NCBI GenBank assembly: GCA_021776025.1
Contig: JAJFGR010000011.1
Location: forward strand, 2,631 to 66,630
Direction: 5' to 3'
Origin: Alphaproteobacteria bacterium
GTDB lineage: Bacteria; Pseudomonadota; Alphaproteobacteria; Micavibrionales; Micavibrionaceae
DNA length: 64,000 nt
A program made the position numbers and the translations under genes. Below the pieces are notes generated by a model. The model was not told where the DNA came from. It worked only from the letters and a program-made list of their open reading frames with translations, and made no database searches. Positions 2,457-29,797 of the stretch are shown here, piece after piece. Position 1 is the first letter of the stretch. Every line of letters begins with the position of its first letter.

Positions 2457-3302
2457 ATGAGCAAAATTTTTGCAGTTTTCACTCTTGTTTTATTCCTCGG
2501 CGCTATGCCCGCTTTTGCACAAAGCACCGATCCTTTGCCTGAACTCCCTGAGCCCATTCAAAATTTAGTGAGCGAAGGGGCGCAGATTCGTTATCTGGGC
2601 AAAGACAACAACATGGATGCGTGGCTGACCATCAAGAATGGCGTTGAACAATATTTCTACGTGCTTCCCGATCGCAGCGCCTTTGTAATGGGTGTAATGT
2701 TCGATAAGAGCGGAAAGCTGGTGACCGTTCAACAGGTTGACCGCCTGCGCTCACAGGGTGACACTTTACTCGATACGCTGGCCGAATTTCCTGAAGCTGA
2801 TAACGCAACAAAGAACAAGCCTTTTGAATTTCAAACCCCGGCTGAGCAGATGTTTTCAGACATTGAAAGCAGTAATTGGATTGCCTTGGGGCAACCTGGC
2901 GCGCCGGTGATGTATAGCTTCATCGACCCGCAATGCACGCATTGTCACGCTTTTATCCGTAGTCTTCAGGCCGAGAAATATTTTGAGAAGGCGCAAATTC
3001 AATTGCGGATGATTCCGGTTGGGTTTAAAGAGCAAACACGGGCACAAGCCGCGTTTTTGATCGCCTCGCCAAACCCACAAGACCGCTGGTTTAAGCATAT
3101 GGATGGTGATGAAAACGCCCTGCCCGCGAAAACAGAGATTAATCAGCAAGGCGTACAGCGCAATTTGGCGATTATGCAGTCATGGAAATTTAATGTTACG
3201 CCGATGATTATTTACCGTGGCCGCGATGGCAGCGTAAAGCTGGTCCGTGGAAAGCCTGAAGACTTGTCTGGTGTCATAGCGGATTTGGCCGCGCCGGGCT
3301 AA
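2457..3302 (+). CDS. periplasmic thiol:disulfide interchange protein, DsbC/DsbG-like
   Basis: Signal peptide MSKIFAVFTLVLFLGAMPAFAQ. Thioredoxin-type active site FIDPQCTHCH. Its 281 aa length fits an N-terminal dimerisation domain plus a Trx fold. Confidence 0.7.
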   Translation: MSKIFAVFTLVLFLGAMPAFAQSTDPLPELPEPIQNLVSEGAQIRYLGKDNNMDAWLTIKNGVEQYFYVLPDRSAFVMGVMFDKSGKLVTVQQVDRLRSQGDTLLDTLAEFPEADNATKNKPFEFQTPAEQMFSDIESSNWIALGQPGAPVMYSFIDPQCTHCHAFIRSLQAEKYFEKAQIQLRMIPVGFKEQTRAQAAFLIASPNPQDRWFKHMDGDENALPAKTEINQQGVQRNLAIMQSWKFNVTPMIIYRGRDGSVKLVRGKPEDLSGVIADLAAPG

Positions 3303-3449
3303 GGCTCGAATAAGGCTTGGGCTAAAAGTAGATTATCGACGAGAAGCCTTGTCCCCGCCCCTAAATCCAATTTATACTTAGAGTGTCAGGGGTTCTGGTT
3401 TTTCAAACTTTGCCCTTTAAGAAACACACGCATAAAGAACCTTTCGAGT

Positions 3450-4697
3450 ATGGATCAACGCGCGGCTTATCTTCTGCAGATTTTAGAGACTATCGGCTCT
3501 CCTTTGATGAGTGCGATTGTAAGCGCTGCGCCTGCTTCAGATGGGCCACCTGACGGGCAAAGTGACGCCCAAACGATGGCGGCATTGCTGGCGAAGACTG
3601 TTGAGGGGAGCATCGAGCTTGGCAATATCATGGACATTAACCCTGCTGAGGCACAAGACGATACGCTCCGTGTCGCATTGGCAGGACTCGCAGGACCGCT
3701 AATTGCCGGACAGTATGAAAAGCGTGGACAAATTCCCGAAAGCCCCAACATCAAAAATATTACAGGAGCGCTACAGGCTGCTCTAACATTTTCGGATAAT
3801 TTTGCGCCTACACCCGAGACGGTGGAGCGTCTTAAAAACCTTCAGGCCTCCGGGCAGGTTGCCGATACATATCAGACGCAGATTCAATATATGCAGGCTT
3901 TTATTCCTGTGATCGAGGCAATTGCGGCCTTTCCATTTGGGCAGGCCGAAGCAAAGCTGATTATGGATGTGAGCGAACGGCTGGTGAAAAGGTCGGTCGA
4001 GCTACGCGAAGCTTTACTGCCGAATATAGATGACGAGGCAGCGCAGAAGCGCATTGAGCTTGGTTTTCTTCGGGCGCTGGCGCAGCTTTATAGCGCGTGT
4101 CACAAAGGTGAGACTGAAAAAGTTTTGGGCATGGACGCGGAAGCCCGCACGGACACTCTCAGTATGGAGCCTGTATGGAATGCTTTTGATCTGCGCGCAG
4201 CGATGCTGGAAGCGCTGGCTGTGAAAATGGCACCCGAAGGACAGGGCAGCAGTTCGGGCGGCGGTCAAGCGCCCAACATCCCTGTCACAGCGCCACCTGT
4301 TGCGGTTGAGCCACCTCCGGCAGCGCCCATTAATACGCCGCCGGTACAGGCGGAAAGCGTGCCCCCGCCTCCACCACCACAAGAACCGCCGCCTGCTCAA
4401 GCCCAGCAGCAAGGCGCTAACCCCATGTCCATGTTTGCCAAACCTAAAGCAGAGGCAGATGAAACGCCCCCGGCTGCGCCCGCAGCAGCGCCGACAGAGT
4501 CTCCTGCGGCAACTCCGCCGCCGCAAGAACAACCGCCTGCCGAACCTGTGCAAGAATCTCCTCCTCCTCCGCCTGCGATCCCTCCGGAACAACCTCCAGC
4601 TGCTCCGCCAGTGGAGACAAATCAGCAAAACGGCGAACAGAGCGGTAGCAGCGGCAGTCCGATGAGCTTCTTCAAAAAAGATGAGGAGGAAGAGTAA
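3450..4697 (+). CDS. hypothetical protein: ~250-aa helical N-domain plus a ~160-aa Pro-rich tail with an acidic C-terminus
   Basis: Long ORF with sustained coding in one frame. The tail is P/A/Q/E-rich and contains PMSMFAKPK and a terminal PMSFFKKDEEEE. No signal peptide or TM helix is obvious. Confidence 0.6.
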   Translation: MDQRAAYLLQILETIGSPLMSAIVSAAPASDGPPDGQSDAQTMAALLAKTVEGSIELGNIMDINPAEAQDDTLRVALAGLAGPLIAGQYEKRGQIPESPNIKNITGALQAALTFSDNFAPTPETVERLKNLQASGQVADTYQTQIQYMQAFIPVIEAIAAFPFGQAEAKLIMDVSERLVKRSVELREALLPNIDDEAAQKRIELGFLRALAQLYSACHKGETEKVLGMDAEARTDTLSMEPVWNAFDLRAAMLEALAVKMAPEGQGSSSGGGQAPNIPVTAPPVAVEPPPAAPINTPPVQAESVPPPPPPQEPPPAQAQQQGANPMSMFAKPKAEADETPPAAPAAAPTESPAATPPPQEQPPAEPVQESPPPPPAIPPEQPPAAPPVETNQQNGEQSGSSGSPMSFFKKDEEEE

Positions 4698-4700
4698 AAT

Positions 4701-5117
4701 ATGGTTGCCAGTAAAATTCTTGCTGCGTGTTTAATGCTTGCTTCACAGACCTATTCGGTGCCGCCGGCTGTGCTTGTTGGCATATATAAAGCTGAAGGCG
4801 GACAGGTGGGCCAAGAAGTTCTCAACACAAACGGCACCTATGATTTGGGGCCGATGCAAATTAATACAATATGGATGCCGGACCTAGCCAAGCGCTGGGG
4901 CGTGAGTGAAGCCACTGCACAGAAATGGGTGCGCGACGATGCGTGTACCAATGTCGGCGTGGCCGCGTGGATTTTCAAAGGCCATTTAGATGAAACCGGC
5001 AGCCTTTCCAAAGCCATTGCTCATTATCACTCCCGCACGCCGCATTACGGCAAGCGTTATAAAAGCCGGGTGATTAATATTATGAAAGATAACGGCTTGA
5101 TCAAAACCAAGCAATAA
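4701..5117 (+). CDS. lytic transglycosylase (SLT domain, VirB1/IagB-like)
   Basis: 138 aa with a signal-like N-terminus. Motifs YKAEGG, YDLGPMQINTIW and AIAHYHS are typical of specialised secretion-system muramidases. Confidence 0.8.
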   Translation: MVASKILAACLMLASQTYSVPPAVLVGIYKAEGGQVGQEVLNTNGTYDLGPMQINTIWMPDLAKRWGVSEATAQKWVRDDACTNVGVAAWIFKGHLDETGSLSKAIAHYHSRTPHYGKRYKSRVINIMKDNGLIKTKQ

Positions 5118-5297
5118 ACCGCACTAGAATTTATTTTCAAAGGTTTTTTTTAATCAGGCCTGTGGGCAGTTTTAGCGGCCTGCTTGCGGAGAATAAACGA
5201 AGCCGTTAATCTTGATTTGATAGAATTCTTTTTAATGATTGCGATATGCTTTCGCTGGTCAGATCAACATTTCCGAGTAATAGGCTTTTTAAGTTCA

Positions 5298-5810
5298 ATG
5301 CGCAGAACATCTTTTCTTTCAACATTTTTGTTTATCGCTTTAGCTGCGGGTGGTTCTGCCTGTTCCAGTTTGGAAAAACACAGCAATGACGAACCGCAAA
5401 TTGTTGCCGCTCCTGATAATGTGAGCGCTATGCTGGCCAGCGCCGCGGACCGCGCGTCTACTGCGCTTCAGACTTTAGCCGCAATTGAATCCACACGCAC
5501 GCCCGCGACCAATATTGGCCCGGTCGGTAATGCGCCGAGCGAACTTCGCCGGGCGATTACAGTGAACTGGATTGGCCCGGCCGAACCGATTACAAACACA
5601 CTGGCAGAGCGCGCCGGGTACCAGTTTCTGACGATCGGTACACCGCCGCCTATTCCGACGGTTGTTTCCGTTGATGTTGAAAACCGTCCGGTGATTGATG
5701 TGCTGCGCAATATTGGACTGCAGCTTGGCGGGCGCGGTGATATAAAGGTTGATAGCCAGCAACGCATCATAGAAATTCACTACACGCCAAACACTGGTGT
5801 GGGCGGATAG
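5298..5810 (+). CDS. dotD: DotD-like outer-membrane lipoprotein (type IVB secretion)
   Basis: Start trimmed to the ATG at 5298 (MRRTSFLSTFLFIALAAGGSAC, lipobox-like). The 170-aa size matches DotD. The C-terminal secretin-N0-like segment reads ITVNWIGPAEPITNTLAERAGYQF...VIDVLRNIGLQLG. It sits directly upstream of dotC-dotB, as in Legionella dotDCB. Confidence 0.7.
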   Translation: MRRTSFLSTFLFIALAAGGSACSSLEKHSNDEPQIVAAPDNVSAMLASAADRASTALQTLAAIESTRTPATNIGPVGNAPSELRRAITVNWIGPAEPITNTLAERAGYQFLTIGTPPPIPTVVSVDVENRPVIDVLRNIGLQLGGRGDIKVDSQQRIIEIHYTPNTGVGG

Positions 5811-5827
5811 GATAAAGGTCTTTTCCA

Positions 5828-6676
5828 ATGCGCAAACTTTTAGTCCGATACTCTTTGTCGATTTGTGCGGCAGTTTTTCTGTCTCTGCCGTTGCAAAGCA
5901 TTGCTTATGCCACGAGCACTGACGATAAAATGCCGAGCGCGCCCCTGACGCTGAACCAACTTCAAACATTAGAAAAAGAAAACACACTGGGTGAAGATGA
6001 CGGGTTGCCGCTTGATATACGCCGCGATGCGATTAAGGAAGCTGCTATTTCCCTAGGTGCGCGAGGCGGTTTGGCGTGGCGTTCTTTTGCTATCCGCCAA
6101 GAATTGGAACAGCGTGCGCGTTATATGGATAAGGTTTTTGATTTTCGCCAGCTGTTGATTGCCGCGCCTTCGGGCCTGCTCATCGAACCGCCAATTATTA
6201 ATGAATCTATCAATAGTATGTTGATTGAAGGCGATGGTCAGCAAGCGGCAGTTTCCGACAGAATTTATAACATTACTAATAATGCGAAAATCGTCTCAAC
6301 ATCGCGGACATGGCGTAATTATTTAGAAAGAAATTGGGGGGTTGTTGAGTCTCCACCTGACATTTTGCGGCCAGAAGACGATGAGGAACGTGCAATCTGG
6401 GTTGAATTGGTTACTAAGGGCTGGGAAGAAGGCGTGAGGCAGGCAAATGACATTTTTGAAGACGATCTTAATATTCTGATTGCGGACTATGAAGGCATGG
6501 TGCGTTACCGTATGCTGCTAGCTCAAGGCATGGTTTCACAGCCCTATGCTCTTCAAGTTGATCGTGGGATTACCGGCGACGGCATGGAAATGCGCGTTGG
6601 AGACCGCGCAATACAAATCACAGGTGTCCCAGAGTTGATGACAGGATCGGATCAATGGAAGCCCGCAAGCCGATAA
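5828..6676 (+). CDS. dotC: DotC-like type IVB secretion protein
   Basis: 282 aa with a signal peptide. The blocks AISLGARGGLAWRSFAIRQELEQRARYMDKVFDFRQLLI and RYRMLLAQGMVSQPYALQVDRGITGDGMEMRVGDRAIQITGVPEL are collinear with DotC as I recall it. Flanked by dotD and dotB. Confidence 0.75.
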   Translation: MRKLLVRYSLSICAAVFLSLPLQSIAYATSTDDKMPSAPLTLNQLQTLEKENTLGEDDGLPLDIRRDAIKEAAISLGARGGLAWRSFAIRQELEQRARYMDKVFDFRQLLIAAPSGLLIEPPIINESINSMLIEGDGQQAAVSDRIYNITNNAKIVSTSRTWRNYLERNWGVVESPPDILRPEDDEERAIWVELVTKGWEEGVRQANDIFEDDLNILIADYEGMVRYRMLLAQGMVSQPYALQVDRGITGDGMEMRVGDRAIQITGVPELMTGSDQWKPASR

Positions 6677-7812
6677 GCCTCCTCAAACCTGAGGACAATT
6701 TTGCAGAGACATGGCCCGACGAACCCGACAGGTTTGCCGAGGAAATGGTTGACCCTTTGCTGATGTGGTGCGTGAAGCAAAATTCCTCTGACATTACAAT
6801 TCAATCAGACCGCCCGGTTTATAATGAAATTCACGGGTCTCTTTATCCGGGAACTTTTCGTGATATTGATGCGGCAGATATGGCGGTCTTCCTCACGAAA
6901 ATTTATGGCCCAGAGGCTTTGGCGCGCCTTGCTTCCGGACGAGATCTTGATGTTTCATATGAAATTCGGCCAGACCGTTATACCCGCGTTCGTTTTCGGG
7001 TGAACATTACGGCGATCCTTTCCAAGGGGCGCGATTCGGCACAAATTACTATGCGGGTATTGCCTAGCGAACCGCCGACTTTCAAAGATTTGGGGATCGA
7101 GCAGGAAATTATCGATGCTTGGGCCCCTCGGCAAGGGCTTGTGGTTATTACAGGGCCAACAGGTTCGGGGAAAACGACATTGTTGGCGGCCGGTAACCGT
7201 TTTCTGTTAGAGCGGCCTGAGGGCTGCGGTAAAATGCTGACTTATGAAGCACCCATCGAATATGTTTATGACGCGATTAAAAGCCCTCGTTCGCTGGTCT
7301 CCCAAAGTGAAATTCCGCGGCATTTGCCGGATTTTGCCCATGGTGTACGCAATGCGCTGCGCCGGAAGCCTGAGGTTATTCTTGTTGGCGAGTCGAGAGA
7401 CCGGGAAACAATTAACGCCTCTATTGAAGCCTCACAGACTGGACATGCGGTCTATACGACAACGCATACAACAGGCGTTGCAGCAACAATTTCACGGATG
7501 CTCTCTAGTTATGATATGAGCGAGCGCGAAGAACGTGCGATTGCGCTGATGGAAACATTACGCCTGGTTGTTACCCAAGCGCTTGTTCCGCGTCAAGGCG
7601 GGGGCAGATGCGGGGTTCGCGAGTGGATGAAGTTTCCCGATGAAGTTCGGGAAAAGCTGATGGATATGGATTTCACGGAATGGCCAAATGAAATTCAACG
7701 CATGATCAATCAATATGGGCAAACTATGCAAAGATCGGCTGAAATTGTGTTTGAAGCTGGCATTATTGATCGTCGGCATTATCTATTACTCTCCTCCAGC
7801 ACCGGCGCTTAA
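6655..7812 (+). CDS. dotB: DotB secretion ATPase (PilT/VirB11 superfamily)
   Basis: 385 aa. Walker A is GPTGSGKTT, and ILVGESRD and QTGHAVYTTTHT match the Asp and His boxes. Overlaps the dotC stop by 22 nt. Confidence 0.85.
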   Translation: MEARKPISLLKPEDNFAETWPDEPDRFAEEMVDPLLMWCVKQNSSDITIQSDRPVYNEIHGSLYPGTFRDIDAADMAVFLTKIYGPEALARLASGRDLDVSYEIRPDRYTRVRFRVNITAILSKGRDSAQITMRVLPSEPPTFKDLGIEQEIIDAWAPRQGLVVITGPTGSGKTTLLAAGNRFLLERPEGCGKMLTYEAPIEYVYDAIKSPRSLVSQSEIPRHLPDFAHGVRNALRRKPEVILVGESRDRETINASIEASQTGHAVYTTTHTTGVAATISRMLSSYDMSEREERAIALMETLRLVVTQALVPRQGGGRCGVREWMKFPDEVREKLMDMDFTEWPNEIQRMINQYGQTMQRSAEIVFEAGIIDRRHYLLLSSSTGA

Positions 7813-7901
7813 TTTATTCTTACCATCCTAACGCCGCGTTAACATTTACCGCGGTAAGATTTTCTTATATAGTAAAAGCTTAATAAGGAGTTTTTCCGGG
7901 T

Positions 7902-8207
7902 ATGGCCGCTGAACAAATTGAGAATCTTCAAGAAAAAATGAACTGGCACTGGCGCAATTCCATGCGCACGGTTCGATTTTTTGCTTTTGATGCGCGGGCG
8001 TCTTTTCCTGCTATTTTGTTACTGTTTCGCCTTGCGGACTGGCGGTTTTGGGCATTGTTTATCTTTAACCTGTTTTTGTTTCGTTTTCTGGAAAATAAAG
8101 GGCTGACCGTTCCTTCTGCACTTAGAAATTTCAGATCATGGATTGTCGGAGCCGAGAGACCGGGCTGGCTTTCTGTGCAGCGCCGTAAATTCATCGATTA
8201 CGGTTAA
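7902..8207 (+). CDS. icmT: IcmT/TraK-like small inner-membrane protein
   Basis: 101 aa. WHWRNSMRTVRFFAFDARASFPAILLLF followed by TM helices is the IcmT-type pattern. It follows dotB as traK follows traJ in IncI systems. An alternative start lies at Met13 (7938). Confidence 0.65.
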   Translation: MAAEQIENLQEKMNWHWRNSMRTVRFFAFDARASFPAILLLFRLADWRFWALFIFNLFLFRFLENKGLTVPSALRNFRSWIVGAERPGWLSVQRRKFIDYG

Positions 8208-8324
8208 TTTTCTTCTGGTCGATAATCTTAAGTTTTTTCGTAAGCCAACGCTTGTTTTTTAAAACGTGGCGTTTTATGGTCAAAGCTGTTTTCAATCATA
8301 TAAAAGCTTAAGGAACCATTCACG

Positions 8325-9626
8325 ATGGAGATGAACGTCTTTTCAAATTTTCGGGGTTCAAAGTTATGCTATGGCATTTTAGCGATCGCGGCTCTTTTTA
8401 TGACGGCAACAACGACACACGCAGGGTTTGAATGGGTTCCTGCGGACCCGAAAGCCTCCCCGCCCGTTCCTGTTGAAGCACTACCGACGACACCACCGGC
8501 TCAAGATTTGTTAATGCATGAACCACAGCCGCTTAGCCCTTTGCCACCGCTTGATATGGAAGAGCCTAAAAAAGCTGCTATGCCAAAAATTGAACGGCAG
8601 CCCCAGCCTGTGATAAAAATTAAAAAAATGACACCGCTGCCTGCACCGGAACAGAGCGAAGCTGAACACAAACCTGTTACGGCTGAAACACTTATGGACA
8701 CAGAAGCCTTAAAGCTTCCGCCTACTACGCATGTAATTATGCCGGAAGATGCGCCAAACTCAGCGCGCACGGTGCCAGAGGCCGAGATTTTAGAGATTAA
8801 CCCTAGTCCAAAACCTTTACCAGATGGCGGTGACAATACTTTACCTATTATGCCTCTGGCAGACGCCCTTGCACCTACAGAAAGCATTCAGGATGCCGTT
8901 GGTTTCGGCACGGATATACCACTAGCGCTGGCCTTGCAACAAATTGCGCCAGCAGGTTATGCTTTTTCATTCGGTAAAGATATTAACCCGGGGGCAAAGG
9001 TTTCGTGGACTGGCGGAAAAGCTTGGACGGAAGTGCTGCGTGATATGATTGCGCCGCTTGCGTTGCAGGCCAGTGTCCGCGGTAAAGCCATCTTGATTCA
9101 TCATGAGAAGCAATCCGCTGCTGTTTTACCCCCTGCTGATATGATCATAGTCGAGCCCAGCTCCGGCGATGAAACAGCCATCGAACCACCTATTGCTTTA
9201 GAACAAGAGAGCATGCCTAAAATTCGCAGAAATACTATTAAGGACCCAGGCGCGGCGGCGCAGGAGCAGCCTCAGGAAGCCTTAAGCACTATCGAAAGGC
9301 TTCCCCCTACTGAAACCGTAATGTTTGAACCCCGTTTAGCGGCGGCGCAAGCCAGTGTTTGGGAAGCGGAAAAAGGTGATAGTCTTAAACAAACGCTCAG
9401 CAAGTGGAGTAAAAAGGGGGGGTTTGAGATGGAATGGCGCGCGGTACACGACTACACACTAACCTCTGACATTCTGGTTGGCGGTAGCTTTGATAAAGCG
9501 CTAAAGACACTTCTCGTCAATGGCGTTGATGTGCAAAAAGGCCCGTCGCTTACCTATGTGAATGATTCAAAAAAGCCCAGCAGTGCAAAACTTATTATTG
9601 AAGACCGCAAGGATTCCGCATCTTAG
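8325..9626 (+). CDS. secreted Pro-rich protein with a C-terminal TcpQ/PilL-like domain
   Basis: 433 aa. A signal peptide (…ILAIAALFMTATTTHAG) is followed by a ~150-aa Pro-rich linker. A central beta-type module reads VGFGTDIPLALALQQIAPAGYAFSF. The C-terminus VWEAEKGDSLKQTLSKWSKKGGFEMEWRAVHDYTLTSDILVGGSFDKALKTLL matches the TcpQ-like pattern. Confidence 0.5.
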   Translation: MEMNVFSNFRGSKLCYGILAIAALFMTATTTHAGFEWVPADPKASPPVPVEALPTTPPAQDLLMHEPQPLSPLPPLDMEEPKKAAMPKIERQPQPVIKIKKMTPLPAPEQSEAEHKPVTAETLMDTEALKLPPTTHVIMPEDAPNSARTVPEAEILEINPSPKPLPDGGDNTLPIMPLADALAPTESIQDAVGFGTDIPLALALQQIAPAGYAFSFGKDINPGAKVSWTGGKAWTEVLRDMIAPLALQASVRGKAILIHHEKQSAAVLPPADMIIVEPSSGDETAIEPPIALEQESMPKIRRNTIKDPGAAAQEQPQEALSTIERLPPTETVMFEPRLAAAQASVWEAEKGDSLKQTLSKWSKKGGFEMEWRAVHDYTLTSDILVGGSFDKALKTLLVNGVDVQKGPSLTYVNDSKKPSSAKLIIEDRKDSAS

Positions 9627-13406: not shown

Positions 13407-13422
13407 TGCAAGGGAAATGCCA
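13407..13422 (-). promoter_or_regulatory. sigma-54 (-24/-12) promoter upstream of flgK
   Basis: The minus strand reads TGGCAT-TTCCC-TTGCA against the consensus TGGCAC-N5-TTGCW. It lies ~84 nt upstream of the flgK ATG, in the 128-nt gap after the preceding gene. Confidence 0.6.
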
Positions 13423-18989: not shown

Positions 18990-19156
18990 ATCTGGCTTAA
19001 AGAGTGCGAATTCCTGTTTATTATGCGCTATCATGGGTGAGCATTTAAAACCCGTAACCGTAAGACCTGTGTGTTTTTCCCTTTTTTACCTATTTGAATG
19101 GTGACAGTGATTTTTTATCTGTCTATCCTAAAATTTGGTACTAACAGTGCGATCGA

Positions 19157-21497: not shown

Positions 21498-21555
21498 ACT
21501 GTTTCGTTTTCTCTTTGTAAGATCATAATAATTTCAAGATTACGAGGCACCCGGC

Positions 21556-22869
21556 ATGCAGGACGATAAGAACGCGGCAGAAAATGAAGATATTGATGAT
21601 CTGGATTTTGACGATCTGGATGCCGAGGAAGACTTTGGCGATGAGTCATGGGATGATTTTGATGATAGTGATCCTGAGATCGAGGACGTAGACAGCCCTG
21701 AAAGCGCGGCTCCTGCCAAAACCGGAAATGGCAATAAGACCTTTCTACAAAAGAATTTTAATCTCATTGTGATCGCAATCGCGACCGTTGGCGGCGGCGG
21801 ATTTATTTTATCACAATTTGGTGGTGCTCCATCCACAACGCAAACGGGCGGCGAACCAGTTTATCAGGCTTCGGCAGATATGGCAGACGCCGCAGATCAA
21901 GAGCTGCCGTCCTTGGCAGGGAATGATGGCTCAGCCGTTCAGCCGCTAGATATTCCCGACCTAGAGGGCGGCTTCCCGCCTATGCCCGCACCGATTGAAA
22001 GTGTTGGCGAGGATCAGGTTGCACTGACCTCCAATGAAATTCCAGATCTTGATGTACAAGAGGAAACAGAAACGCCAATCGCTGATGCGGGTGTTTTAAC
22101 ACCTTTGCCTGACCTGACTGACGCAAGTGAAGACACAACACTTGGGGATCTTGACCTTCCTCTTGAGGGTCTGAATTTTGAACTGGAAAGCTCTTTGCAA
22201 GAGCAAATCGTAGATGAAGATGTACAGCTTAGCGCTGCAGAGCCTGAGCCCGTTGCCCTTCAGCAAGAACAAGCTGCGGATACGCTTATAGACGCAGAAC
22301 CTATTGAAAGCCCAGTTATTGATGAAGTCCCGTCCATTGTAGAAGACGCCACAGCTAAAGCCCCTCCCGAGCAGGAAACGGCCGTTGATAGCGCCGCGCT
22401 AGAGAATCAAATTTTAGCATTACAATCAACACTTAGTGAGAATGAGGGTGCGCTACAAAAAGCCTCGGCAGCCGAGGAAAAACTTACCGCAGAGCTTGAG
22501 TTCGCCAATAATCAAATTGGGAGCCTCAAAAGCGAGCTTGAGGCTTTAAAAGCAAGCGTGAGCGCGAAAAAAGCTGACACCTCGTCGTCGCCAGCCCAAA
22601 AAACTCAGACATCAGAAGCACCCTCTAAGCCGGCAGTGCCCAAACCAGAGGTTAAAAAGACCCCTCCCAAAGCCGTAAAAGAAAAGACGGAACAATGGGT
22701 TATGCGCTCTGCACAGCCTGGAGCAGCCACGCTTTATTCTAAAGATAGCGGTGATTTACGGCGCGTTGAAATGGGAGACACCATAGGTGGATTGGGCAAA
22801 ATTCAATCGATTTCCATCGAGAATGGACGTTGGGTCGTGCGCGGCTCAAAAGGCTCTATATCACAATAA
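21556..22869 (+). CDS. icmG: DotF/IcmG (TraP-like) bitopic protein
   Basis: 437 aa. A very acidic N-terminus and one TM helix (FNLIVIAIATVGGGGFILSQF) are followed by a coiled-coil and a C-terminal beta domain (WVMRSAQPGAATLY...GDTIGGLGKIQSISIENGRWVVRG). The call is supported mainly by position. Confidence 0.55.
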   Translation: MQDDKNAAENEDIDDLDFDDLDAEEDFGDESWDDFDDSDPEIEDVDSPESAAPAKTGNGNKTFLQKNFNLIVIAIATVGGGGFILSQFGGAPSTTQTGGEPVYQASADMADAADQELPSLAGNDGSAVQPLDIPDLEGGFPPMPAPIESVGEDQVALTSNEIPDLDVQEETETPIADAGVLTPLPDLTDASEDTTLGDLDLPLEGLNFELESSLQEQIVDEDVQLSAAEPEPVALQQEQAADTLIDAEPIESPVIDEVPSIVEDATAKAPPEQETAVDSAALENQILALQSTLSENEGALQKASAAEEKLTAELEFANNQIGSLKSELEALKASVSAKKADTSSSPAQKTQTSEAPSKPAVPKPEVKKTPPKAVKEKTEQWVMRSAQPGAATLYSKDSGDLRRVEMGDTIGGLGKIQSISIENGRWVVRGSKGSISQ

Positions 22870-23014
22870 CCATCTGATAATAATAAACAAATTACGGTAA
22901 CCTTTTCTTTGCACTTTTTGTGTTATGATAACTAAAGGTAAGCGTATATGTGCATTTTTAGTAAAGTTTTATTGAAATTTGCGCAGTTAACAAAAAGTAT
23001 GATGTAATAGACAT

Positions 23015-24820
23015 ATGACGGTAATTTATAATAAGAAATATGGTAGGGGTAATGTGGCTGCGTTTTTCAAAAAACTGAGCGGCATTTCGCTTTTTTCTGT
23101 TTTAATTTCAGTGCTTTATAGTTCTTCCGCCTCTGCGCAGGATGTTAGTGACCTTGCAGAGAACATGGTGACCTCTGTAGAGCAGCTTCCCGCGCTTGTT
23201 GCGGCGATCGCTTATATTCTGGGTCTTATACTCGGCATTACCGGTATTCTTAAAATTAAAGAACATGTTGAGAACCCAACGCAGGTCCCTTTACGTACAG
23301 GGGTCATTCGCTTGTTTATTGGGGGCACTCTATTCGCCCTGCCTATCGTCTATGAAGCAGTTTTCCAAACAGTTGGCAACAACCCGCTGTCTTGGGATAA
23401 CGGTTCGATAGTAAACGATGTTTCGGGCTTTTTTGGAAATATCGGTGGAGGGCTTGGCATAGACCTTAATGGTATTCTGAACAGCATTTTGGCTTCCATT
23501 GAAGAGGTTCCGGCCCTTATTTCTGCCGTGGCCTATCTTCTCGGTCTTGTGATTGTTATTCAGGGACTTTTAAAAATCAAAGACCATGTTGAGATGCCAG
23601 ATGGTCAGGGCGCGACCCCTCTTAAAGAAGGCGTTGTGCGGCTTCTTGTTGGTGGCGCTTTGTTTGCTCTGCCGAGCATTTATAACGCGATGTTTGATGC
23701 TGTGGGCGGAAACGGTCTTGGGATTATTGGCAATATTACATCTATTCTGGGCAGTGCTGGTTTCCTTTATTCTTCATATGCACAAGGCTTGTGTAACCCG
23801 GTTGCATCTACTGTTGGTGGCGTAGGCGCTTTTTTTGGGCTGGGTGGCCCAAGCACCGGACAGCTTATGTGTGGCATTCTTTTACATGCCGGGGCCTTCC
23901 CTGCATTCTTGACAGCTTGTAGCTATGTTATTGGCCTTGTGCTTGGCCTCTGGGGTATTTTCAAACTTCGTGACCATGTTTTGAACCCGCAACAAACGCA
24001 AATCTGGGAAGGGGTTTCACGCCTACTAGCTGGCGGCTTTTTCTTTGCCTTGCCCGTTGTTGTCGAGGTTGCCAGAAGCACGCTGGGAGCACCAGCGATG
24101 ACCGTAGCTGCGGGCTCTCCCATCAGCCTTAGAGGCTATAATGATGGTAGCGGTGGCGGTATTGGTGGCTTTTTCGCTAATATATTAAGCAGCGGTGGCT
24201 GTGGTGGCGCAGGCGGTATTGGTGGCTTTTTCGGTCTTGGTGGCACCGGTGGCGGCAGTGGCTTAGGCCTGGACCAAATGCTTGTCTGTATGATGGGCGA
24301 TATTATGGGACCACTCCATGTCGTATTGAATTTCTTCGCTTTTGTTGCCGGAATGATTTTACTGATGATCGGTATATCACGGCTTATAAAAAGCGCACAG
24401 GACGGTGCGCGCGGACCGGGCGGTATTGGTACAGCTATGACGTTTGTAACCGGCGCGGCGCTTATTTCTTACAATGAACTGGTGCGGGCTTTTTCAACAA
24501 CATTGGTTGGCAGTCCCGTGACAGCGACCTTTGCAAAAATGCAGTATAATGTTTGTGCGGGTGGCGGCACGTGCGCTGAGTCTACGGCGGCTCATTCAAC
24601 CATTAGTGCAATTTTACAATTTGTAATCATCGTTGGCCTCATAAGCTTCGTTCGTGGTATATTTATTATCCGCGGCGTTGCAGAGGGCAACCAACAGTCT
24701 TCGATCATGGCGGGAGTCACCCATATTGTTGGGGGGGCGCTAGCCGTGAACTTAGGCCCGGTTATCAATGCGGTTCAGTCCACATTGGGAATTGGGCAAT
24801 TTGGTATTGCATTCTCGTAA
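23015..24820 (+). CDS. polytopic membrane protein made of five tandem DotE/DotP (IcmC/IcmD)-like two-helix modules
   Basis: 601 aa with a signal peptide (…SSSASAQ). The modules fall at aa 55-121, 162-231, 292-358, 431-497 and 529-592. Modules 1-3 keep the core L.KIK(E/D)HV.NP.Q.PL..G..RL..GG.LFALP. Gly-rich GGFF linkers join the modules. The gene occupies the icmC slot. Confidence 0.6.
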   Translation: MTVIYNKKYGRGNVAAFFKKLSGISLFSVLISVLYSSSASAQDVSDLAENMVTSVEQLPALVAAIAYILGLILGITGILKIKEHVENPTQVPLRTGVIRLFIGGTLFALPIVYEAVFQTVGNNPLSWDNGSIVNDVSGFFGNIGGGLGIDLNGILNSILASIEEVPALISAVAYLLGLVIVIQGLLKIKDHVEMPDGQGATPLKEGVVRLLVGGALFALPSIYNAMFDAVGGNGLGIIGNITSILGSAGFLYSSYAQGLCNPVASTVGGVGAFFGLGGPSTGQLMCGILLHAGAFPAFLTACSYVIGLVLGLWGIFKLRDHVLNPQQTQIWEGVSRLLAGGFFFALPVVVEVARSTLGAPAMTVAAGSPISLRGYNDGSGGGIGGFFANILSSGGCGGAGGIGGFFGLGGTGGGSGLGLDQMLVCMMGDIMGPLHVVLNFFAFVAGMILLMIGISRLIKSAQDGARGPGGIGTAMTFVTGAALISYNELVRAFSTTLVGSPVTATFAKMQYNVCAGGGTCAESTAAHSTISAILQFVIIVGLISFVRGIFIIRGVAEGNQQSSIMAGVTHIVGGALAVNLGPVINAVQSTLGIGQFGIAFS

Positions 24821-24886
24821 AAAGCGGGTGGTCCGTGAGAGTGTAAATTTTAGTGAGCAAACCTTTTGGTAGAGGAGAACTAACCT

Positions 24887-25273
24887 ATGACTATTTTTAA
24901 AAAAACTTACAGTAAAGCTGGTGCAATGATGGTTGCTGGTATGGTTGCTGGACAGGCTGGTACAGCCCATGCTGGTAACAACTTCAGTAACATTGCAGCA
25001 AATATTACGACATCGATTTCAGACCTGCCTGGTCTGTTGTCAGCTCTGTCATACCTCTTTGGTATTCTGATGGGTGTTCTTGGTGTGATGAAAATTAAAG
25101 ATCACGTTGAAAACCCAACACAGACACCGTTGAAAGATGGTGCGATTAGACTGGCTGCCGGTGGCGCATTATTTGCGCTCCCAATTATGTTCGAAGCAAT
25201 GTTCGAAACAGTTGGTACAGGTACTACTGTTGATGCAGCACAACTGAAAAAGGTTAACTTTGTAACAACCTAA
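24887..25273 (+). CDS. DotP/IcmD-like (pilin-like) small membrane protein, single module
   Basis: 128 aa. A signal peptide ending TAHA is followed by two hydrophobic helices flanking KIKDHVENPTQTPLKDGAIRL. By eye it is ~55-60% identical to module 1 of the upstream 601-aa protein. An RBS (GAGGAG) lies upstream. Confidence 0.6.
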   Translation: MTIFKKTYSKAGAMMVAGMVAGQAGTAHAGNNFSNIAANITTSISDLPGLLSALSYLFGILMGVLGVMKIKDHVENPTQTPLKDGAIRLAAGGALFALPIMFEAMFETVGTGTTVDAAQLKKVNFVTT

Positions 25274-25276
25274 TTC

Positions 25277-25996
25277 ATGGAAAGCTATCCCATTATATTG
25301 GGAATTTCCCGGCCAAATCCGGGAAGTTCAAAAAGTCAGAGTGGAGCCGGAAAATCCGGCTCCTCTTCTGCTATCAACAACAAAGTACCTAAAGATCTTA
25401 AGCAAAAGATTTTTGAACGCGATGATTTCACCTGCCAGTGCTGCGGGTTCCAATCTAAGAAATATCAGGAAATCCTGCATAAAAATCACAATCCAACGGA
25501 TATGTCGGAAAGCAACCTTTTAACTGTCTGCATTTTCTGTCAGCAATGTTTTTGCCTAGAAAGTGTAAGCGGGATGAAATCTGGCGTCCTAATCTGGATG
25601 CCCGAGATTGATCAGGCAACGCTGCATCATATAGCGCGTGCAATTTATGTCGCGCGAATTTCGCAGGGGCCGGTCGCAGAAGCGGCGAGAAAATCTCTGG
25701 ATATCATTATGGGGCGGCGCGATGAGGTTAAAAAAAGAATTCATACTGATGATCCTTATATCTTAGCGACTGTCTTAAAGGATTATTTAGGGCCAAAGCA
25801 TTACGCTGCGCGCGAAAATAAACTGGAAGGCTTGCGTTTATTCCCATTAGACCGGCGCATTATTAAAGAAGCCGATCTGGAATTTAATCAATTTCCACAA
25901 ATCTTGGCTTATTGGCGTTCAAAAGACGGTCCATTTGGCGGAAAAACGCCGCCGCAATGGATTTCGATTTATCAGGACTTGCTTCAAGCTGCCTGA
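25277..25996 (+). CDS. icmJ: DotN/IcmJ-like zinc-binding protein
   Basis: 239 aa. The Cys cluster is FTCQCCGF...LLTVCIFCQQCFCLES. It lies immediately upstream of icmB, as in Dot/Icm loci. Confidence 0.65.
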   Translation: MESYPIILGISRPNPGSSKSQSGAGKSGSSSAINNKVPKDLKQKIFERDDFTCQCCGFQSKKYQEILHKNHNPTDMSESNLLTVCIFCQQCFCLESVSGMKSGVLIWMPEIDQATLHHIARAIYVARISQGPVAEAARKSLDIIMGRRDEVKKRIHTDDPYILATVLKDYLGPKHYAARENKLEGLRLFPLDRRIIKEADLEFNQFPQILAYWRSKDGPFGGKTPPQWISIYQDLLQAA

Positions 25997-26114
25997 TTTC
26001 ACTTTATTCCGGCATAAAACACCCTCTTTGTCTTTAAAACTCTAGGACGTGACCATGATCTTGGTTATATTTATCTGTGGTGATCCCTAAGAGCAAAATG
26101 AACAAATATCTTTT

Positions 26115-29100
26115 ATGAATACTCTACAGAAAATATTAGCGCCGTTTCAGAAGGCCATGCGCCAGTCTATAACGTCTTTTATCAATCTGGAAACAGCCGA
26201 TAGCGAGACATCTCTCGTATCTACTGACGGATCGCTTATATCCTATGTTAAAATCGAGGGTAGCAAGCAGATCATCGGGGAAGAGGAATATAACAATATT
26301 GTTCAGGCCTCAACGATCAAAATTGGTTCGCGCTTTGACCGTCAGGGCCATGCTTTGCAGGCTTACTACGTTCGAGATCCCGGCCGGATTGAGCAAGTTT
26401 TAGAATCTCTGGTCAGACCTGTCCGCCAGTCTGCTGAGAATATTGGCATAGAGCTTGATGATTTGATTGGTGAACGCGTGCGACATTTGCAGCGCTTTTT
26501 GAGCCATGAAGAAGCGTATTTTGTACTTTGGACGCGGCCAAGCGTTCTGACTAAAAATGAAGCTGACCGAGCCGGTAAAGATGCCAAAGAAGATGCCAAA
26601 AACTGGGTTAATGCCCCGGGGTCCCAGTATCCGTTTGCAGCGCTAGAGCCCTTAAGAACACGGCATAAAAGTTTTGTCGCCGCCGTTGTGGGCGGTCTTG
26701 ATGAGATGGGTATTAGCGCCGATCTTATGGAGGTTCATGATGCTTTGAATGCCGTGCGCAGCAATCTTTTTCCTGATAGGGCTAATGAAAAGTGGCGGGC
26801 CAATTTGCCTGGCGATCCGATATCGCCGCGCGCGCCCTTGGGCAAAATTGATATGTCCGATATTCTTTGGCCCAATATTCCCAATCAGCTCGTTGCCGGA
26901 GATGCAAAAACTTTAGGGCGGTCCGTTTGCCGAATTGGAGACATGTTCTGGGCTGGCGGGGACATGACTTTGGGTCCGATGGATGCGACAGGTTTTCCGA
27001 GTTTATTGAACAGATTGGTAGAAGCCGATCTTCCGTTTCGAATTTCGTTTCTTATTGAAGGTGGTGGGATTTATGCCACACAAATGCGAACATTCCTTGC
27101 AACCATCATGGGGCCAACCAATGCCAGTAACAAGCAGGTTAAATATTCCTTAGAAGGCTTGCAGACCATGGCTAGGAGTGAGCCTGTTGTACGTTTGCGG
27201 ATATCTTTTGCTACATGGTGCGTTATCGAAGAAAAAGATGAGATTCTTGATCGTCTTTCTATTCTGCTGCAAGCCGTAGAGAGCTGGGGCTATGCGCAGG
27301 TCAGCGAATTTTCCGGTGACCCACTTGATTGCATTATGTCTTCAGCAATGGGGATCCATTGCGCCGGCACAGCGCCAACAGCCATTGCGCCGATGATTGA
27401 AGTTATGAAACTTTTACCATGGCAGCGCCCTTCCAGCCCTTTTACAGAAGGCGGTTCAATGCTTTTCCGCACACCCGACGGAAAAGTCTGGCCCTATCAA
27501 ACCGGAACGAATTTGACAACGACATGGTTTGATCTGATTTTTGCCCAGCCCGGGGCCGGTAAATCTGTTTTGCTCAATACTCTCAATCTCGGAACCTGCC
27601 TATCTCCGGGCCTCAATAAGTTACCGTTTGTGGCCGTTGTTGATATTGGTCCATCGTCTTCCGGGCTTATTTCCTTGGTTCGAGAAGCGCTTCCGCTTAA
27701 TCGTCAACATGAAGCGGCTTATTACCGCCTGCAGATGAGCCACCAGTTTGCGATTAATCCATTTGATACGCAGGTTGGTTGCCGAGCACCTCTACCTGAT
27801 GAGCGCAGTTATCTTTCAGAGCTTATAACCTTACTCTGTACACCGCCGGGCTATGACAAGCCTTATGACGGCATGCAGCAGCTGGCCGGGCTCGTTGTTG
27901 ATGAAATGTTCCGCTGGCGTAATGACAATGAAGCCAATGCGGAGCCGCGCCCTTATCTACCGCGCCTTGAGGCTGACGTTGATGAGGCCCTTCTTAAATT
28001 TAATGTTCATCTACCGACCGACCCCTATTGGTGGGACATTGTCGATAAGATGTTTGATCTTGGGCAATATCACATTGCCAATCTAGCCCAGCGCCATGCT
28101 GTTCCCACATTAAACGATTCGATTACCGCTTCACGCCGACCGCAAATTCGCTCTTTGCTTGAAGAAACATCTGTGGGCTTTAGCGCCGAAACGGTGATTG
28201 GCGCGTTTGAGCGGATGATAACGTCGGCTATCCGGGAGTTTCCAATTTTATCCTCTGTCACTCAGTTTGATATTGCCGATTCAAGAGTGGTCTCACTCGA
28301 TCTTATGGATGTTGCACCGCAGGGTGATGAAGCTGCTGACAGGCAAACATCGATCATGTACATGCTTGCGCGTCACGCGCTGGTGCGCAGTTGGTGGATG
28401 GGGCAAGAAGCTGTGCAGTTTGTGCCGCAAAAATATCAGGAATATCATGAGCTGCGCCTGCAAGAGCTGGGGGAATCTCCCAAACGTTTATGTTACGACG
28501 AATTCCATAGGACGAGTAAATCAGGCGCAGTGCGCAATCAGGTTATCCGCGATGTCCGTGAGGGGCGGAAGCGCGGCGTACAGATCGTGCTGACATCTCA
28601 ACTTATAGACGACTTCAGTCAGGATATGGTTGATCTGGCAACCGGTGTTTGGGTTTTGGGCACGGCCATTTCCGACAAAGCCGTTGATAATGTTGTTGAT
28701 CGCTTTGGTTTGAGTGATACCGCCAAAGCCATTATTCGGCATAAATTGACCGGGCCAAAATCTATTGGTGCACCAGTTTTGTTTGTTTTGGGCTCAACGG
28801 ACGGACGGTATGAACAGCATCTCTATAATACGCTGGGCCCGATCGAGCTTTGGGCTTTATCAACGTCTGCGGAAGATGTTGCGATCCGTAACAGACTTTA
28901 TAATAAAGTCGGCGCTGGGCGCGCACGGCTTATTCTGGCATCGAATTATCCGGGCGGGAGTGCGCGGAATGAAATTCGCCGCCGCGTTTTAGCAAACAGC
29001 GAAGAGGGAGAGGCCCGCGCTGCTATGATCAGCACAATAATTGAAGAAATTGTTGAGGAAATGGTTGAAGAAAGCAAGATTTCGCAAAAAGAAGAGACCG

Positions 29101-29123
29101 GCAAACGCGTGAAACTGGCCTAA
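26115..29123 (+). CDS. icmB: DotO/IcmB (TraU-like) secretion ATPase
   Basis: 1002 aa. Walker A is FAQPGAGKSVLLNTL. Size and position match IcmB. Confidence 0.85.
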   Translation: MNTLQKILAPFQKAMRQSITSFINLETADSETSLVSTDGSLISYVKIEGSKQIIGEEEYNNIVQASTIKIGSRFDRQGHALQAYYVRDPGRIEQVLESLVRPVRQSAENIGIELDDLIGERVRHLQRFLSHEEAYFVLWTRPSVLTKNEADRAGKDAKEDAKNWVNAPGSQYPFAALEPLRTRHKSFVAAVVGGLDEMGISADLMEVHDALNAVRSNLFPDRANEKWRANLPGDPISPRAPLGKIDMSDILWPNIPNQLVAGDAKTLGRSVCRIGDMFWAGGDMTLGPMDATGFPSLLNRLVEADLPFRISFLIEGGGIYATQMRTFLATIMGPTNASNKQVKYSLEGLQTMARSEPVVRLRISFATWCVIEEKDEILDRLSILLQAVESWGYAQVSEFSGDPLDCIMSSAMGIHCAGTAPTAIAPMIEVMKLLPWQRPSSPFTEGGSMLFRTPDGKVWPYQTGTNLTTTWFDLIFAQPGAGKSVLLNTLNLGTCLSPGLNKLPFVAVVDIGPSSSGLISLVREALPLNRQHEAAYYRLQMSHQFAINPFDTQVGCRAPLPDERSYLSELITLLCTPPGYDKPYDGMQQLAGLVVDEMFRWRNDNEANAEPRPYLPRLEADVDEALLKFNVHLPTDPYWWDIVDKMFDLGQYHIANLAQRHAVPTLNDSITASRRPQIRSLLEETSVGFSAETVIGAFERMITSAIREFPILSSVTQFDIADSRVVSLDLMDVAPQGDEAADRQTSIMYMLARHALVRSWWMGQEAVQFVPQKYQEYHELRLQELGESPKRLCYDEFHRTSKSGAVRNQVIRDVREGRKRGVQIVLTSQLIDDFSQDMVDLATGVWVLGTAISDKAVDNVVDRFGLSDTAKAIIRHKLTGPKSIGAPVLFVLGSTDGRYEQHLYNTLGPIELWALSTSAEDVAIRNRLYNKVGAGRARLILASNYPGGSARNEIRRRVLANSEEGEARAAMISTIIEEIVEEMVEESKISQKEETGKRVKLA

Positions 29124-29137
29124 CCAGAGAAAAAACC

Positions 29138-29797
29138 ATGAGTGATACACCCAAAGACGAAGATGATGGCATCACACTCAGCGTGGAGATTATGGACAGG
29201 GCTGAACGCAAGGCTTTGAAAGAAAAAGCCAAGGCAGAAGCCGCTGCGAAAAAAGTGGAACCCACACAAGATGAGATAGAAGCCGCCTTAGCAACCAGCA
29301 AATTGGCAAACGCCCAAAAAGTAAAACGCAAAAGAATATTCAAAGGCGGGGGGGCTCTGGTCGGCCTTGCGCTTTTTGGGTGGCTGGTGAATTACATGTT
29401 TACCCCTTACAGGGCCGGCATAACCTTTGGTATTTGTAAAACTTTCCTCGAGCTTAATCTGCAATTCCCGCAAGACATGCGGATCAGCACTGTTGATGAT
29501 TTTGGTGAATATGTGCGGATTTGGTATACGCAGCTTGATGCTTTTGGTGAATACCGGATGGAGAATATTCAATGTCACTTCCGTGCTGATGAGGTTACAG
29601 GGGCCGCCATCGATAAAATCACAATAAATCGCCGTGAAGTTGACCCGGAGCGCATTACAAAGTTTAACAAAATACTTCCGGTTATCTTAGCAAGCCCGCC
29701 GGATTTGACTATTCCTTATCCACTTCCAGATAGTTTAGAGAGTTTGCAGATCGATACGAATGCATTTCGTTTTCAGTTGAATTTGCGGAGGCGGTAA
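29138..29797 (+). CDS. hypothetical bitopic membrane protein (last gene of the T4BSS block)
   Basis: 219 aa. A Lys/Glu-rich N-terminus and one TM helix (GALVGLALFGWLVNYMF) precede a ~130-aa C-terminal domain. It starts 14 nt after icmB. Confidence 0.5.
   Translation: MSDTPKDEDDGITLSVEIMDRAERKALKEKAKAEAAAKKVEPTQDEIEAALATSKLANAQKVKRKRIFKGGGALVGLALFGWLVNYMFTPYRAGITFGICKTFLELNLQFPQDMRISTVDDFGEYVRIWYTQLDAFGEYRMENIQCHFRADEVTGAAIDKITINRREVDPERITKFNKILPVILASPPDLTIPYPLPDSLESLQIDTNAFRFQLNLRRR

Follow-up and report, generated by a model that had tools for sequence, protein, structure and literature searches.

A stretch of 64,000 nucleotides from a genome of the Micavibrionaceae (assembly GCA_021776025.1, contig JAJFGR010000011.1, positions 2,631 to 66,630; the whole stretch is called the window here, and positions are counted within it) carries at 2457-29797 a set of genes of the Dot/Icm type, that is, genes for a secretion system of type IVB (T4BSS). 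The set was recognised by profile searches with Pfam and NCBIfam and by comparisons with the transfer system of IncI1 plasmids (Table 1). One plus-strand block (2457-9626) encodes DsbG-like, u415, TrbN-like, DotD, DotC, DotB, IcmT and TcpQ-like proteins, and a second (18288-29797) encodes IcmL, IcmK, DotG, DotF, IcmC-like, IcmD-like, IcmJ, IcmB and u219. Between the two, on the minus strand, lie three paralogous genes and flgK-flgL. We would expect three transcription blocks around a nested flagellar unit, namely dsbG-u415-trbN-dotD-dotC-dotB-icmT-tcpQ-like, then three IcmX-like genes on the opposite strand, and icmL-icmK-dotG-dotF-icmC/D-icmJ-icmB-u219. In the table of open reading frames (ORFs), genes overlap by 22 nt (DotC/DotB), by 14 nt (IcmK/DotG) and, among the paralogs, by 4 and 23 nt, and several gaps are of 3-66 nt.

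All of the Dot/Icm hallmarks that the initial annotation had named in this interval from the letters alone were found, with profile support far beyond chance. That annotation had allowed for the profiles missing most of the ORFs; most of them matched Dot/Icm or IncI1 families. The VirB1-like muramidase and the DsbC-like oxidoreductase that it placed alongside are recovered by the TrbN and DsbG models, respectively, and the tight and overlapping junctions are as it described them.

Table 1. Features of the Dot/Icm-type locus and of the genes nested within it, by position in the window.
Feature	Position	Strand	Support
DsbG/DsbC-like periplasmic disulfide isomerase, signal peptide	2457-3302	+	NCBIfam DsbG 5.4e-34
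u415, 415 aa, helical N-terminal half, proline-rich tail ending KKDEEEE	3450-4697	+	no family match
TrbN/VirB1-like lytic transglycosylase	4701-5117	+	NCBIfam TrbN 4.3e-27; Pfam SLT 8.6e-6
DotD lipoprotein	5298-5810 (ORF 5184-5810)	+	Pfam DotD 1.9e-35; NCBIfam 8.9e-30
DotC/TraI outer-membrane core protein	5828-6676	+	Pfam T4SS_TraI 1.9e-80; HMM vs IncI1 TraI 1.2e-39
DotB/TraJ ATPase (PilT-like)	6655-7812	+	TIGR02524 2.2e-118, 395 bits; Walker A GPTGSGKT
IcmT/TraK small membrane protein	7902-8207	+	NCBIfam NF038220, 65 bits vs cut-off 40
TcpQ-like periplasmic protein, 433 aa, signal peptide, proline-rich linkers, C-terminal TcpQ/BfpG-like domain	8325-9626	+	Pfam TcpQ 1.8e-11
FlgL-like hook-filament junction protein, 403 aa	9658-10869	-	flagellin N and C domains; FlgL/flagellin models weak, below cut-offs
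FlgK hook-associated protein 1, 806 aa	10903-13323	-	TIGR02492 257 bits vs cut-off 171
Sigma-54-type promoter TGGCATTTCCCTTGC then A	13408-13422	-	about 80 nt upstream of flgK, in 128-nt gap
IcmX-like paralog 3, 620 aa, last in array, about 200-aa extra domain after signal peptide	13452-15314	-	alignment
IcmX-like paralog 2, 463 aa, modelled protein	15292-16683	-	AlphaFold2 and Foldseek
IcmX-like paralog 1, 458 aa, first in array	16680-18056	-	43% identical to paralog 2
Divergent promoter region, IcmX-like array / icmL	18057-18287	.	conserved GGCACGTTTCA (18174-18184) and ATTGTATCACAAG
IcmL/DotI	18288-18989	+	Pfam 4.2e-67; NCBIfam 204 bits vs cut-off 175
IcmK/DotH	19157-20245	+	Pfam 4e-76; HMM vs TraN 7e-31
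DotG/IcmE, 421 aa, VirB10-like, TraO-length, no repeat region	20232-21497	+	NCBIfam DotG 1.7e-48; TraO 3.6e-29
DotF/IcmG-like, acidic N-terminus, one membrane segment, coiled coil, C-terminal beta domain	21556-22869	+	NCBIfam IcmG 4.7e-6; HMM vs TraP 3.2e-5 (weak)
Polytopic 601-aa protein, IcmD/TraR-like N-terminus (DUF6750), extra membrane segments, IcmC/DotE/TraQ-like C-terminus	23015-24820	+	
IcmD/DotP/TraR-like small membrane protein, 128 aa, between icmC and icmJ	24887-25273	+	DUF6750 5e-3; TraR 2.6e-3
IcmJ/DotN	25277-25996	+	NCBIfam 1.4e-28, 99.8 bits vs cut-off 100; TraT 6e-8
IcmB/DotO/TraU, VirB4-family ATPase, 1002 aa	26115-29123	+	homologs named IcmB; TraU similarity
u219, 219 aa, one apparent membrane segment, directly after icmB	29138-29797	+	no family match

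The outer-membrane core is represented by DotC, DotD, DotH, a DotG with the VirB10-like C-terminal domain and, weakly, DotF. For the inner membrane, IcmL and IcmT score above curated cut-offs, and the IcmC/IcmD-like proteins are reached through TraQ, DUF6750 and TraR. Both kinds of ATPase are encoded, the VirB4 type (IcmB/DotO/TraU) and the DotB/TraJ type. The core (DotC, DotD, DotH, DotG, DotF), the inner-membrane parts (DotI, IcmT, IcmC/D-like) and the ATPases DotB and DotO are all intact and strongly conserved. The score of DotB is below the equivalog cut-off of TIGR02524 (463 bits), yet this model is the best of all for the protein. The true start of DotD is probably 5298 and not the mechanical 5184, because a 170-aa gene was called on an identical Logan contig. 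As the initial annotation had stated, DotG is compact and free of repeat expansion; it aligns with positions 739-1007 (C-terminal) of the DotG model only, and with TraO over the full length. The 601-aa protein has about eight hydrophobic segments and matches DUF6750 (2.5e-10), TraQ (6.3e-15, at residues 421-593) and TraR (5e-4). IcmB had no match in Pfam or among PDB sequences, and is 27% identical to IncI1 TraU over 91% of its length (E 1e-86; phmmer 1.7e-97).

Hidden Markov models (HMMs) built from orthologs in related loci were compared with the protein set of one annotated IncI1 plasmid. The pairing is one-to-one, the partners being TraH, I, J, K, M, N, O, P, R, T, U and TrbB, and the genes at the locus stand in the order of the plasmid, so that the IncI-type arrangement proposed earlier is that of traH-K and traM-U. 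For u415, the TcpQ-like protein, u219 and the paralogs, the ortholog HMMs matched none of IncI1 TraE, F, L, S, W, X, Y and TrbA. A phmmer comparison of all IncI1 transfer proteins with the window's full set of ORFs gave matches for TraI, J, M, N, O, T and U only. Curated models favour Dot/Icm over IncI1 (395 vs 248 bits for DotB, 165 vs 102 bits for DotG).

Several genes of the locus are accessory. The operon on the dotD side opens with the gene of the DsbG-like protein, which corresponds to TrbB of IncI1; the ortholog HMM of this protein matches TrbB weakly (3.5e-3), and the gene is also at the operon end in two relatives (L052, L066; such L-numbers are labels of the relatives' loci). The next protein, u415, had no match in Pfam, NCBIfam, PDB or plasmids and no signal peptide, and orthologs with 25-29% identity occupy the same place in the same two relatives. 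It could be an adaptor or a substrate. About 150 of its residues are proline-rich low-complexity sequence that ends in KKDEEEE, an ending that recalls the C-terminal signals, rich in glutamate, that Dot/Icm substrates carry. The TcpQ-like protein appears to be an accessory component new to both Dot/Icm and IncI1; its gene lies between FlgL and IcmT in 40 loci, with 25-50% identity. It also matches PDB chain 9u5s_R ('Lipoprotein', 1.9e-4), from an entry cited in a paper on the BFP type IVb secretin (PMC12531336). The last protein, u219, had no family or PDB match; a hydrophobic stretch is visible by eye at about residues 70-90, where an automated scan found none, and a gene of 219 or 202 aa follows icmB in three further relatives (L083-L085) as well.

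The three minus-strand paralogs have invariant motifs and cysteines in common, and their N-termini resemble signal peptides. They belong to a large and wholly unannotated family, which comprises 2039 clusters when grouped at 90% identity and 1260 representatives at 50%, and in which many members have N-terminal extensions of 200-650 aa with no known domain. The number of copies per complete locus is 2 (1 locus), 3 (22), 4 (11) or 5 (23), and the copies follow a conserved positional order of subfamilies. The subfamily of the 620-aa type takes the last position in 54 of 57 complete loci, and by its alignment paralog 3 appears to be a distinct ancient subfamily.

The structure of paralog 2 was predicted with AlphaFold. 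A 15-sequence alignment gave a pLDDT of 51 and was not used, and a 122-sequence alignment gave 81. In the model, long helices at the N-terminus (46-140, 145-180) are followed by a middle part rich in loops (181-300) and by C-terminal helices ending with 408-461. The top Foldseek match in the PDB is 9ngy_AP1 (E 3.2e-3, probability 1.00), and the next has an E of 0.75. Entry 9NGY is the in-situ DotA-IcmX protochannel of Legionella; given that its chain FP1 is DotA, AP1 (417 modelled residues) was taken by elimination as IcmX. Legionella IcmX is described as a protein of 466 aa that has a signal peptide, helices towards both termini and many loops in between (PMC12501162), and the size and layout of the paralogs agree with this description. 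IcmX is regarded as the equivalent of VirB5, and DotA as that of VirB6, in a recent review. We suspect that the three paralogs are IcmX homologs forming a VirB5-like cap, an assignment that is likely rather than proven because the TM-score of the match is low. The machine would then be less reduced than it looked. The initial annotation had counted several genes of the block as foreign to the canonical set, and for flgK-flgL and the TcpQ-like gene this stands; the paralogs most likely belong to the set.

The same paralogs could instead be secreted toxins or adhesins, with the machine exporting Sec-delivered cargo from the periplasm as Ptl of Bordetella exports pertussis toxin. Signal-like N-termini and invariant cysteines in a locus with a DsbG-like isomerase would suit such cargo, as would the lack of a coupling protein in the window and the N-terminal GDSL lipase domain of one family member; in the literature, both IcmX and DotA of Legionella are found released in the supernatant of cultures. 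We consider this rather unlikely, given that the best structural match is IcmX, which is a part of the machine, that ordered positional subfamilies fit a structural set better than a toxin set, and that IcmJ/DotN is retained at 56-85% identity, implying a DotL-type receptor elsewhere.

The family member with the lipase domain is P0409 (a representative of 920 aa), in which a GDSL lipase/acylhydrolase domain at residues 29-173 precedes the IcmX-like core. With this arrangement, the presumed distal end of the cap would bear an enzyme that attacks lipids.

The array and the icmL operon diverge from a common spacer. In 23 of 66 orthologous spacers GGCACGTTTCA is found, preceded at a distance of about 12 nt by ATTGTATCACAAG; in 22 of these 23 it lies 69-122 nt from icmL. 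GGCACGTTTCA has one exact copy in the window. The second motif, read toward the paralogs, is TGnTACAAT, an extended -10-like element. The pair is probably a regulator site or an unusual promoter common to both divergent T4BSS operons. A generic promoter and terminator scan of the window gave counts near the shuffle expectation, with promoter-like sites slightly above it.

The flagellar genes are under a different kind of signal. The motif TGGCAY-N5-TTGCA lies within 200 nt upstream of 60 of 62 FlgK orthologs (TGGCAT-N5-TTGCA in the window copy), and was found upstream of 0/89, 3/135 and 0/72 members of the IcmX-like subfamilies, 0/69 IcmL and 0/53 IcmT genes. A FlgL gene comes after flgK in 58 loci. 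We conclude that flgK and flgL are genuine flagellar genes with their own regulation that ride as passengers within the locus. The motif would imply sigma-54 control of late flagellar genes across the Micavibrionales, as is the case for late flagellar genes in Caulobacter.

The position of flgK-flgL, inside the locus in most of the 79 genomes described below, right after the IcmX-like array and on the same strand, might suggest that FlgK and FlgL were recruited into the secretion machine to form a hybrid of flagellum and T4BSS. We regard such a hybrid as extremely improbable, and FlgK and FlgL were rejected as machine parts on the distribution of the sigma-54 promoter, which is absent or rare upstream of the T4BSS genes tested. 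FlgK scores above its curated cut-off. Three relatives (L015, L052, L066) lack flgKL at this site, and another (L005) has the array and flgKL without the icmL operon. The genome paper of M. aeruginosavorus ARL-13 gives a single FlgK, GMV2433, far from the main flagellar clusters and with a number close to those of genes annotated near 2.43 Mb; no flagellar regulators are in its list.

The distribution of the locus bears on its origin. The best relatives of IcmB (76-91% identity) are in metagenome-assembled genomes (MAGs) labelled Micavibrio sp. or Alphaproteobacteria, some with contigs as long as 2.3 Mb. When one genome for each species was scanned with the paralog family as seed, 79 loci were obtained, in MAGs so labelled (a few under other names) and in the complete chromosome of the cultured M. 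aeruginosavorus HCB189. Mapped by tblastn with all window proteins, these loci have a near-constant layout: icmJ ... dotG-icmK-icmL, 2-5 divergent paralogs, flgK, flgL, and convergent tcpQ-like-icmT-dotB-dotC-dotD-trbN. The HCB189 chromosome (L065; NZ_CP195303, 2008080-2029249) has the full locus with only two IcmX-like genes, and its DotB, DotD, IcmT, IcmL, DotG and IcmJ were confirmed with curated models. In L083-L085 the right border is that of the window (IcmB, u219, MltA, Tim44, FxsA, SecB, dnaQ, coaE, aroE, maf), with an aldo-keto reductase interposed in the one of them that is a 2.33-Mb chromosome.

Among relatives, identity is 74-92% for DotB, 51-88% for IcmL, 67-91% for IcmB and 56-85% for IcmJ, and the envelope-exposed parts vary more (30-76% for IcmX-like, 25-50% for TcpQ-like and 26-42% for DotF proteins). 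The cytoplasmic and membrane parts thus appear strongly conserved and the periplasmic or exposed parts fast-evolving. The G+C content across the locus is 0.46-0.53, the same as in the flanks. As the initial annotation had observed, the borders carry no sign of an integrase, a tRNA or a relaxase: the flanks are housekeeping genes, neither a relaxase nor an integrase or a coupling protein came up in profile searches of the window, borders included, and there is no tRNA in the window. From synteny and conservation, we conclude that the locus is in all appearance an old, vertically inherited chromosomal trait, and neither an island nor a remnant.

A conjugative origin must nevertheless be weighed against this. 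The locus might be a domesticated or decaying IncI/MPF-I conjugation system, the remnant of a plasmid or of an integrative and conjugative element, which either moves DNA with a relaxase encoded elsewhere or does not work. Its gene order is that of IncI1 traH-K and traM-U, its DotG has the length of TraO, and neither DotA nor a coupling protein is encoded in cis. Among plasmids, the closest IcmB (44% identity; L081) is on the megaplasmid pBSY19_1 of Bosea sp. RAC05, 13 kb from an IcmO/DotL-type coupling protein, and two relatives of that coupling protein stand among mobile-element genes. We think a remnant unlikely, since relaxase, integrase, tRNA and G+C shift are lacking, the chromosomal position is the same in three distant relatives, the genes are intact and syntenic in 79 species-level genomes (with the DotB identities given above), and the models are closer to Dot/Icm than to IncI1. 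Where the earlier reading left a choice between an effector-translocating system, a conjugation remnant and a reduced machine, the intact genes, the synteny and the fixed site therefore disfavour the last two. As for the Bosea megaplasmid, no other T4BSS gene was found within 20 kb of its IcmB, and relatives of its IcmO-type protein are widespread in Alphaproteobacteria. Such IcmB/IcmO contexts may represent an uncharacterised family of mobile elements with T4BSS-type ATPases.

The account that we consider reasonably probable is that the locus encodes an ancestral, vertically inherited Dot/Icm-type machine of Micavibrio-like alphaproteobacteria that works as follows. The IcmX-like proteins would be exported by Sec, become disulfide-bonded with the aid of the DsbG-like isomerase, and form, along the machine's central axis, a VirB5-like cap or a conduit that can extend. 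With 2-5 paralogs in a set order, some of them bearing large and variable domains at the N-terminus, alternative or mixed tips could result that contact the target. The machine would deliver proteins into or onto prey cells on contact, and a DotA-like base and a DotL/DotM coupling complex, to which DotN would belong, would be encoded elsewhere in the genome.

DotN is present in the window without DotL or DotM. IcmJ/DotN is a subunit of the Legionella coupling complex, and its conservation, noted above, is therefore our argument that a DotL-type partner exists elsewhere in the genome. The initial annotation had not seen DotA/TraY, DotL, DotM, DotU/IcmF or IcmS/W/Q/R in the window, and none is at the locus. 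No further Walker A protein was found in the window, and no DotA, DotL or DotM downstream of icmB in L083-L085. The portion of the ARL-13 supplementary text available to us has no entry for TraG, VirD4 or 'conjug'. The genes found here do include what a quoted TXSScan-type rule asks for, namely VirB4 and at least six accessory genes, with no relaxase.

In a single relative (L041, 13195-15145, minus strand) a second, diverged copy of IcmL/DotI (51% identity) directly follows the IcmX-like array. It adjoins an RTX-type calcium-binding protein with a type I secretion signal, and then housekeeping genes. Neither dotL nor dotM follows this copy.

Several observations weigh against the machine as we picture it. 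Searches of the 64-kb window found no DotA/TraY, DotL/TrbC, DotM/TrbA or IcmS/W. A protein search seeded with the Bosea IcmO-type protein (120 proteins recovered) reached no identifiable Micavibrionales contig and led only to plasmid or ICE-like settings in Alphaproteobacteria, and the two IcmO-type relatives inspected (L086, L087) are beside AbiEii, Prim-Pol and ParA-like genes on contigs of 1.5-1.6 Mb. The paralogs matched nothing in Pfam, NCBIfam, PDB sequences or plasmids, whether searched as single sequences or as profiles, and the resemblance to 9ngy_AP1 is one of fold only (TM-score 0.25-0.27, rmsd 10 A, identity 10%). Predation is documented for only a few cultured members of the order, the prey role being inferred from lifestyle. 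The missing sequence signal of the paralogs says little in itself, because TraW of IncI1, whose gene occupies the equivalent place behind traU, did not match IcmX by sequence either.

The function is most likely contact-dependent protein delivery into prey bacteria, because those carriers that have been cultured live as obligate epibiotic predators on Gram-negative bacteria, and genes for DNA transfer are missing from the locus. A bolder version, which we advance tentatively and hold to be possible rather than probable, is that this Dot/Icm machine is the feeding or killing device of epibiotic Micavibrio and the first type IVB system aimed at bacterial prey, the array of IcmX-like tips, with variable or enzymatic N-terminal domains on some of its members, setting which prey is engaged and breached.

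Eukaryotic hosts are the alternative target, in which case many Micavibrio-like lineages would be associated with protists and not predators of bacteria. Every characterised Dot/Icm system acts on eukaryotic cells, the carriers are mostly uncultured MAGs of unknown lifestyle, and one paper put marine Micavibrionales with the system under 'related to described pathogens'. Set against this, M. aeruginosavorus, the carrier that is in culture, depends on preying on bacteria, and the Legionella-type adaptors IcmS, W, Q and R were not seen in the window. We doubt that eukaryotes are the target, and prey bacteria remain the one that we favour.

Outside the locus, the window consists of housekeeping genes near the putative origin, among them hemE, rho, mnmE, mnmG, parAB and leuS. 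A spacer of 390 bp (41321-41710) in a low-G+C stretch precedes hemE, at 41711, and contains about eight GANTC (CcrM-type) sites by eye. These features fit an alphaproteobacterial replication origin. A search for DnaA boxes of the E. coli type found no enrichment, with counts near the shuffle expectation. The hemE spacer and its sites would suit the origin that the initial annotation predicted about 11.5 kb from the locus; the DnaA-box counts do not speak for it.

Beside this putative origin, at 37941-40434 on the minus strand, two paralogs of the DUF6782 'putative metallopeptidase' family stand side by side, neither with an evident signal peptide, and the pair is at the same place in L083-L085. 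It is possible that they are secreted predation factors or T4BSS substrates.

In reviews, the T4BSS is a signature of Legionellales-type intracellular bacteria and IncI plasmids. The 2011 genome paper of M. aeruginosavorus reported no evidence of a type III or IV system, and the full locus in HCB189 contradicts the statement on type IV. In Needham 2022, one sentence records such systems in seven marine Micavibrionales MAGs, by a rule under which VirB4 and six accessory genes suffice and a coupling protein is not required. The literature searched contained no other mention, and no account of conservation across the order, the fixed site, the IcmX-like array, the TcpQ-domain protein or the nested sigma-54 flgKL.

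If our reading is correct, a type IVB machine is here an order-wide, vertical, chromosomal trait of an alphaproteobacterial lineage that, as far as it has been cultured, preys on bacteria. The locus is a concrete candidate, open to genetic tests, for the means by which epibiotic predators break into their prey and empty it. The IcmX-like family, with its 1260 representatives, is a source of natural variants for that part of the Dot/Icm channel which is least understood.

Compared with the Dot/Icm systems of Legionella and Coxiella, the locus has the same DotC, DotD, DotH, DotG, DotF, DotI, IcmT, DotE/DotP-like, DotN, DotO and DotB proteins, the same order icmL-K-E-G-C-D-J-B, a putative IcmX counterpart (here at the level of fold) and no relaxase (here within the window). 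It differs in its host, an alphaproteobacterial lineage with bacteria-preying cultured members and not an intracellular gammaproteobacterium. DotG has 421 aa here and 1048 aa in Legionella, which is also described with one IcmX, whereas the loci here have 2-5 IcmX-like paralogs. Extra to Dot/Icm are the TcpQ/BfpG-domain protein, the DsbG-like and TrbN-like genes in the operon and the nested flgKL, and DotA, DotL, DotM, DotK, DotU/IcmF and IcmS/W/Q/R are lacking at the locus.

With the IncI1 (R64-type) Tra/Trb system of the MPF-I class the locus is collinear along traH-I-J-K and traM-N-O-P-Q-R-T-U. Both have a DotG of TraO length and a thioredoxin-fold protein, the one here being weakly related to TrbB, and in both a foreign block splits the cluster between traK/icmT and traM/icmL. 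In contrast to IncI1, the window has no NikB relaxase, TraY, TraW, TraX, TrbA or TrbC, protein identities are low (27% for TraU), and the locus is chromosomal and, as we read it, vertically inherited. Of the elements that mark IncI-type conjugation (the MOBP relaxase NikB, oriT, TraY, TraW, TrbA-C and a mobile replicon), none was found within the window.

Two systems of another class offer analogies. The X-T4SS of Xanthomonadales is a type IVA (VirB/D4) system that acts on other bacteria by contact and has toxin-immunity pairs. It resembles our case in the proposed function only, as it belongs to a different class and an equivalent of the toxin-immunity pairs was not identified here. The Trw system of Bartonella, also of type IVA, binds erythrocytes and has no known effector translocation; its VirB5/VirB2-type surface genes are tandemly amplified, which is thought to diversify target binding. 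The IcmX-like array at the locus described here may be its analogue in a type IVB machine.

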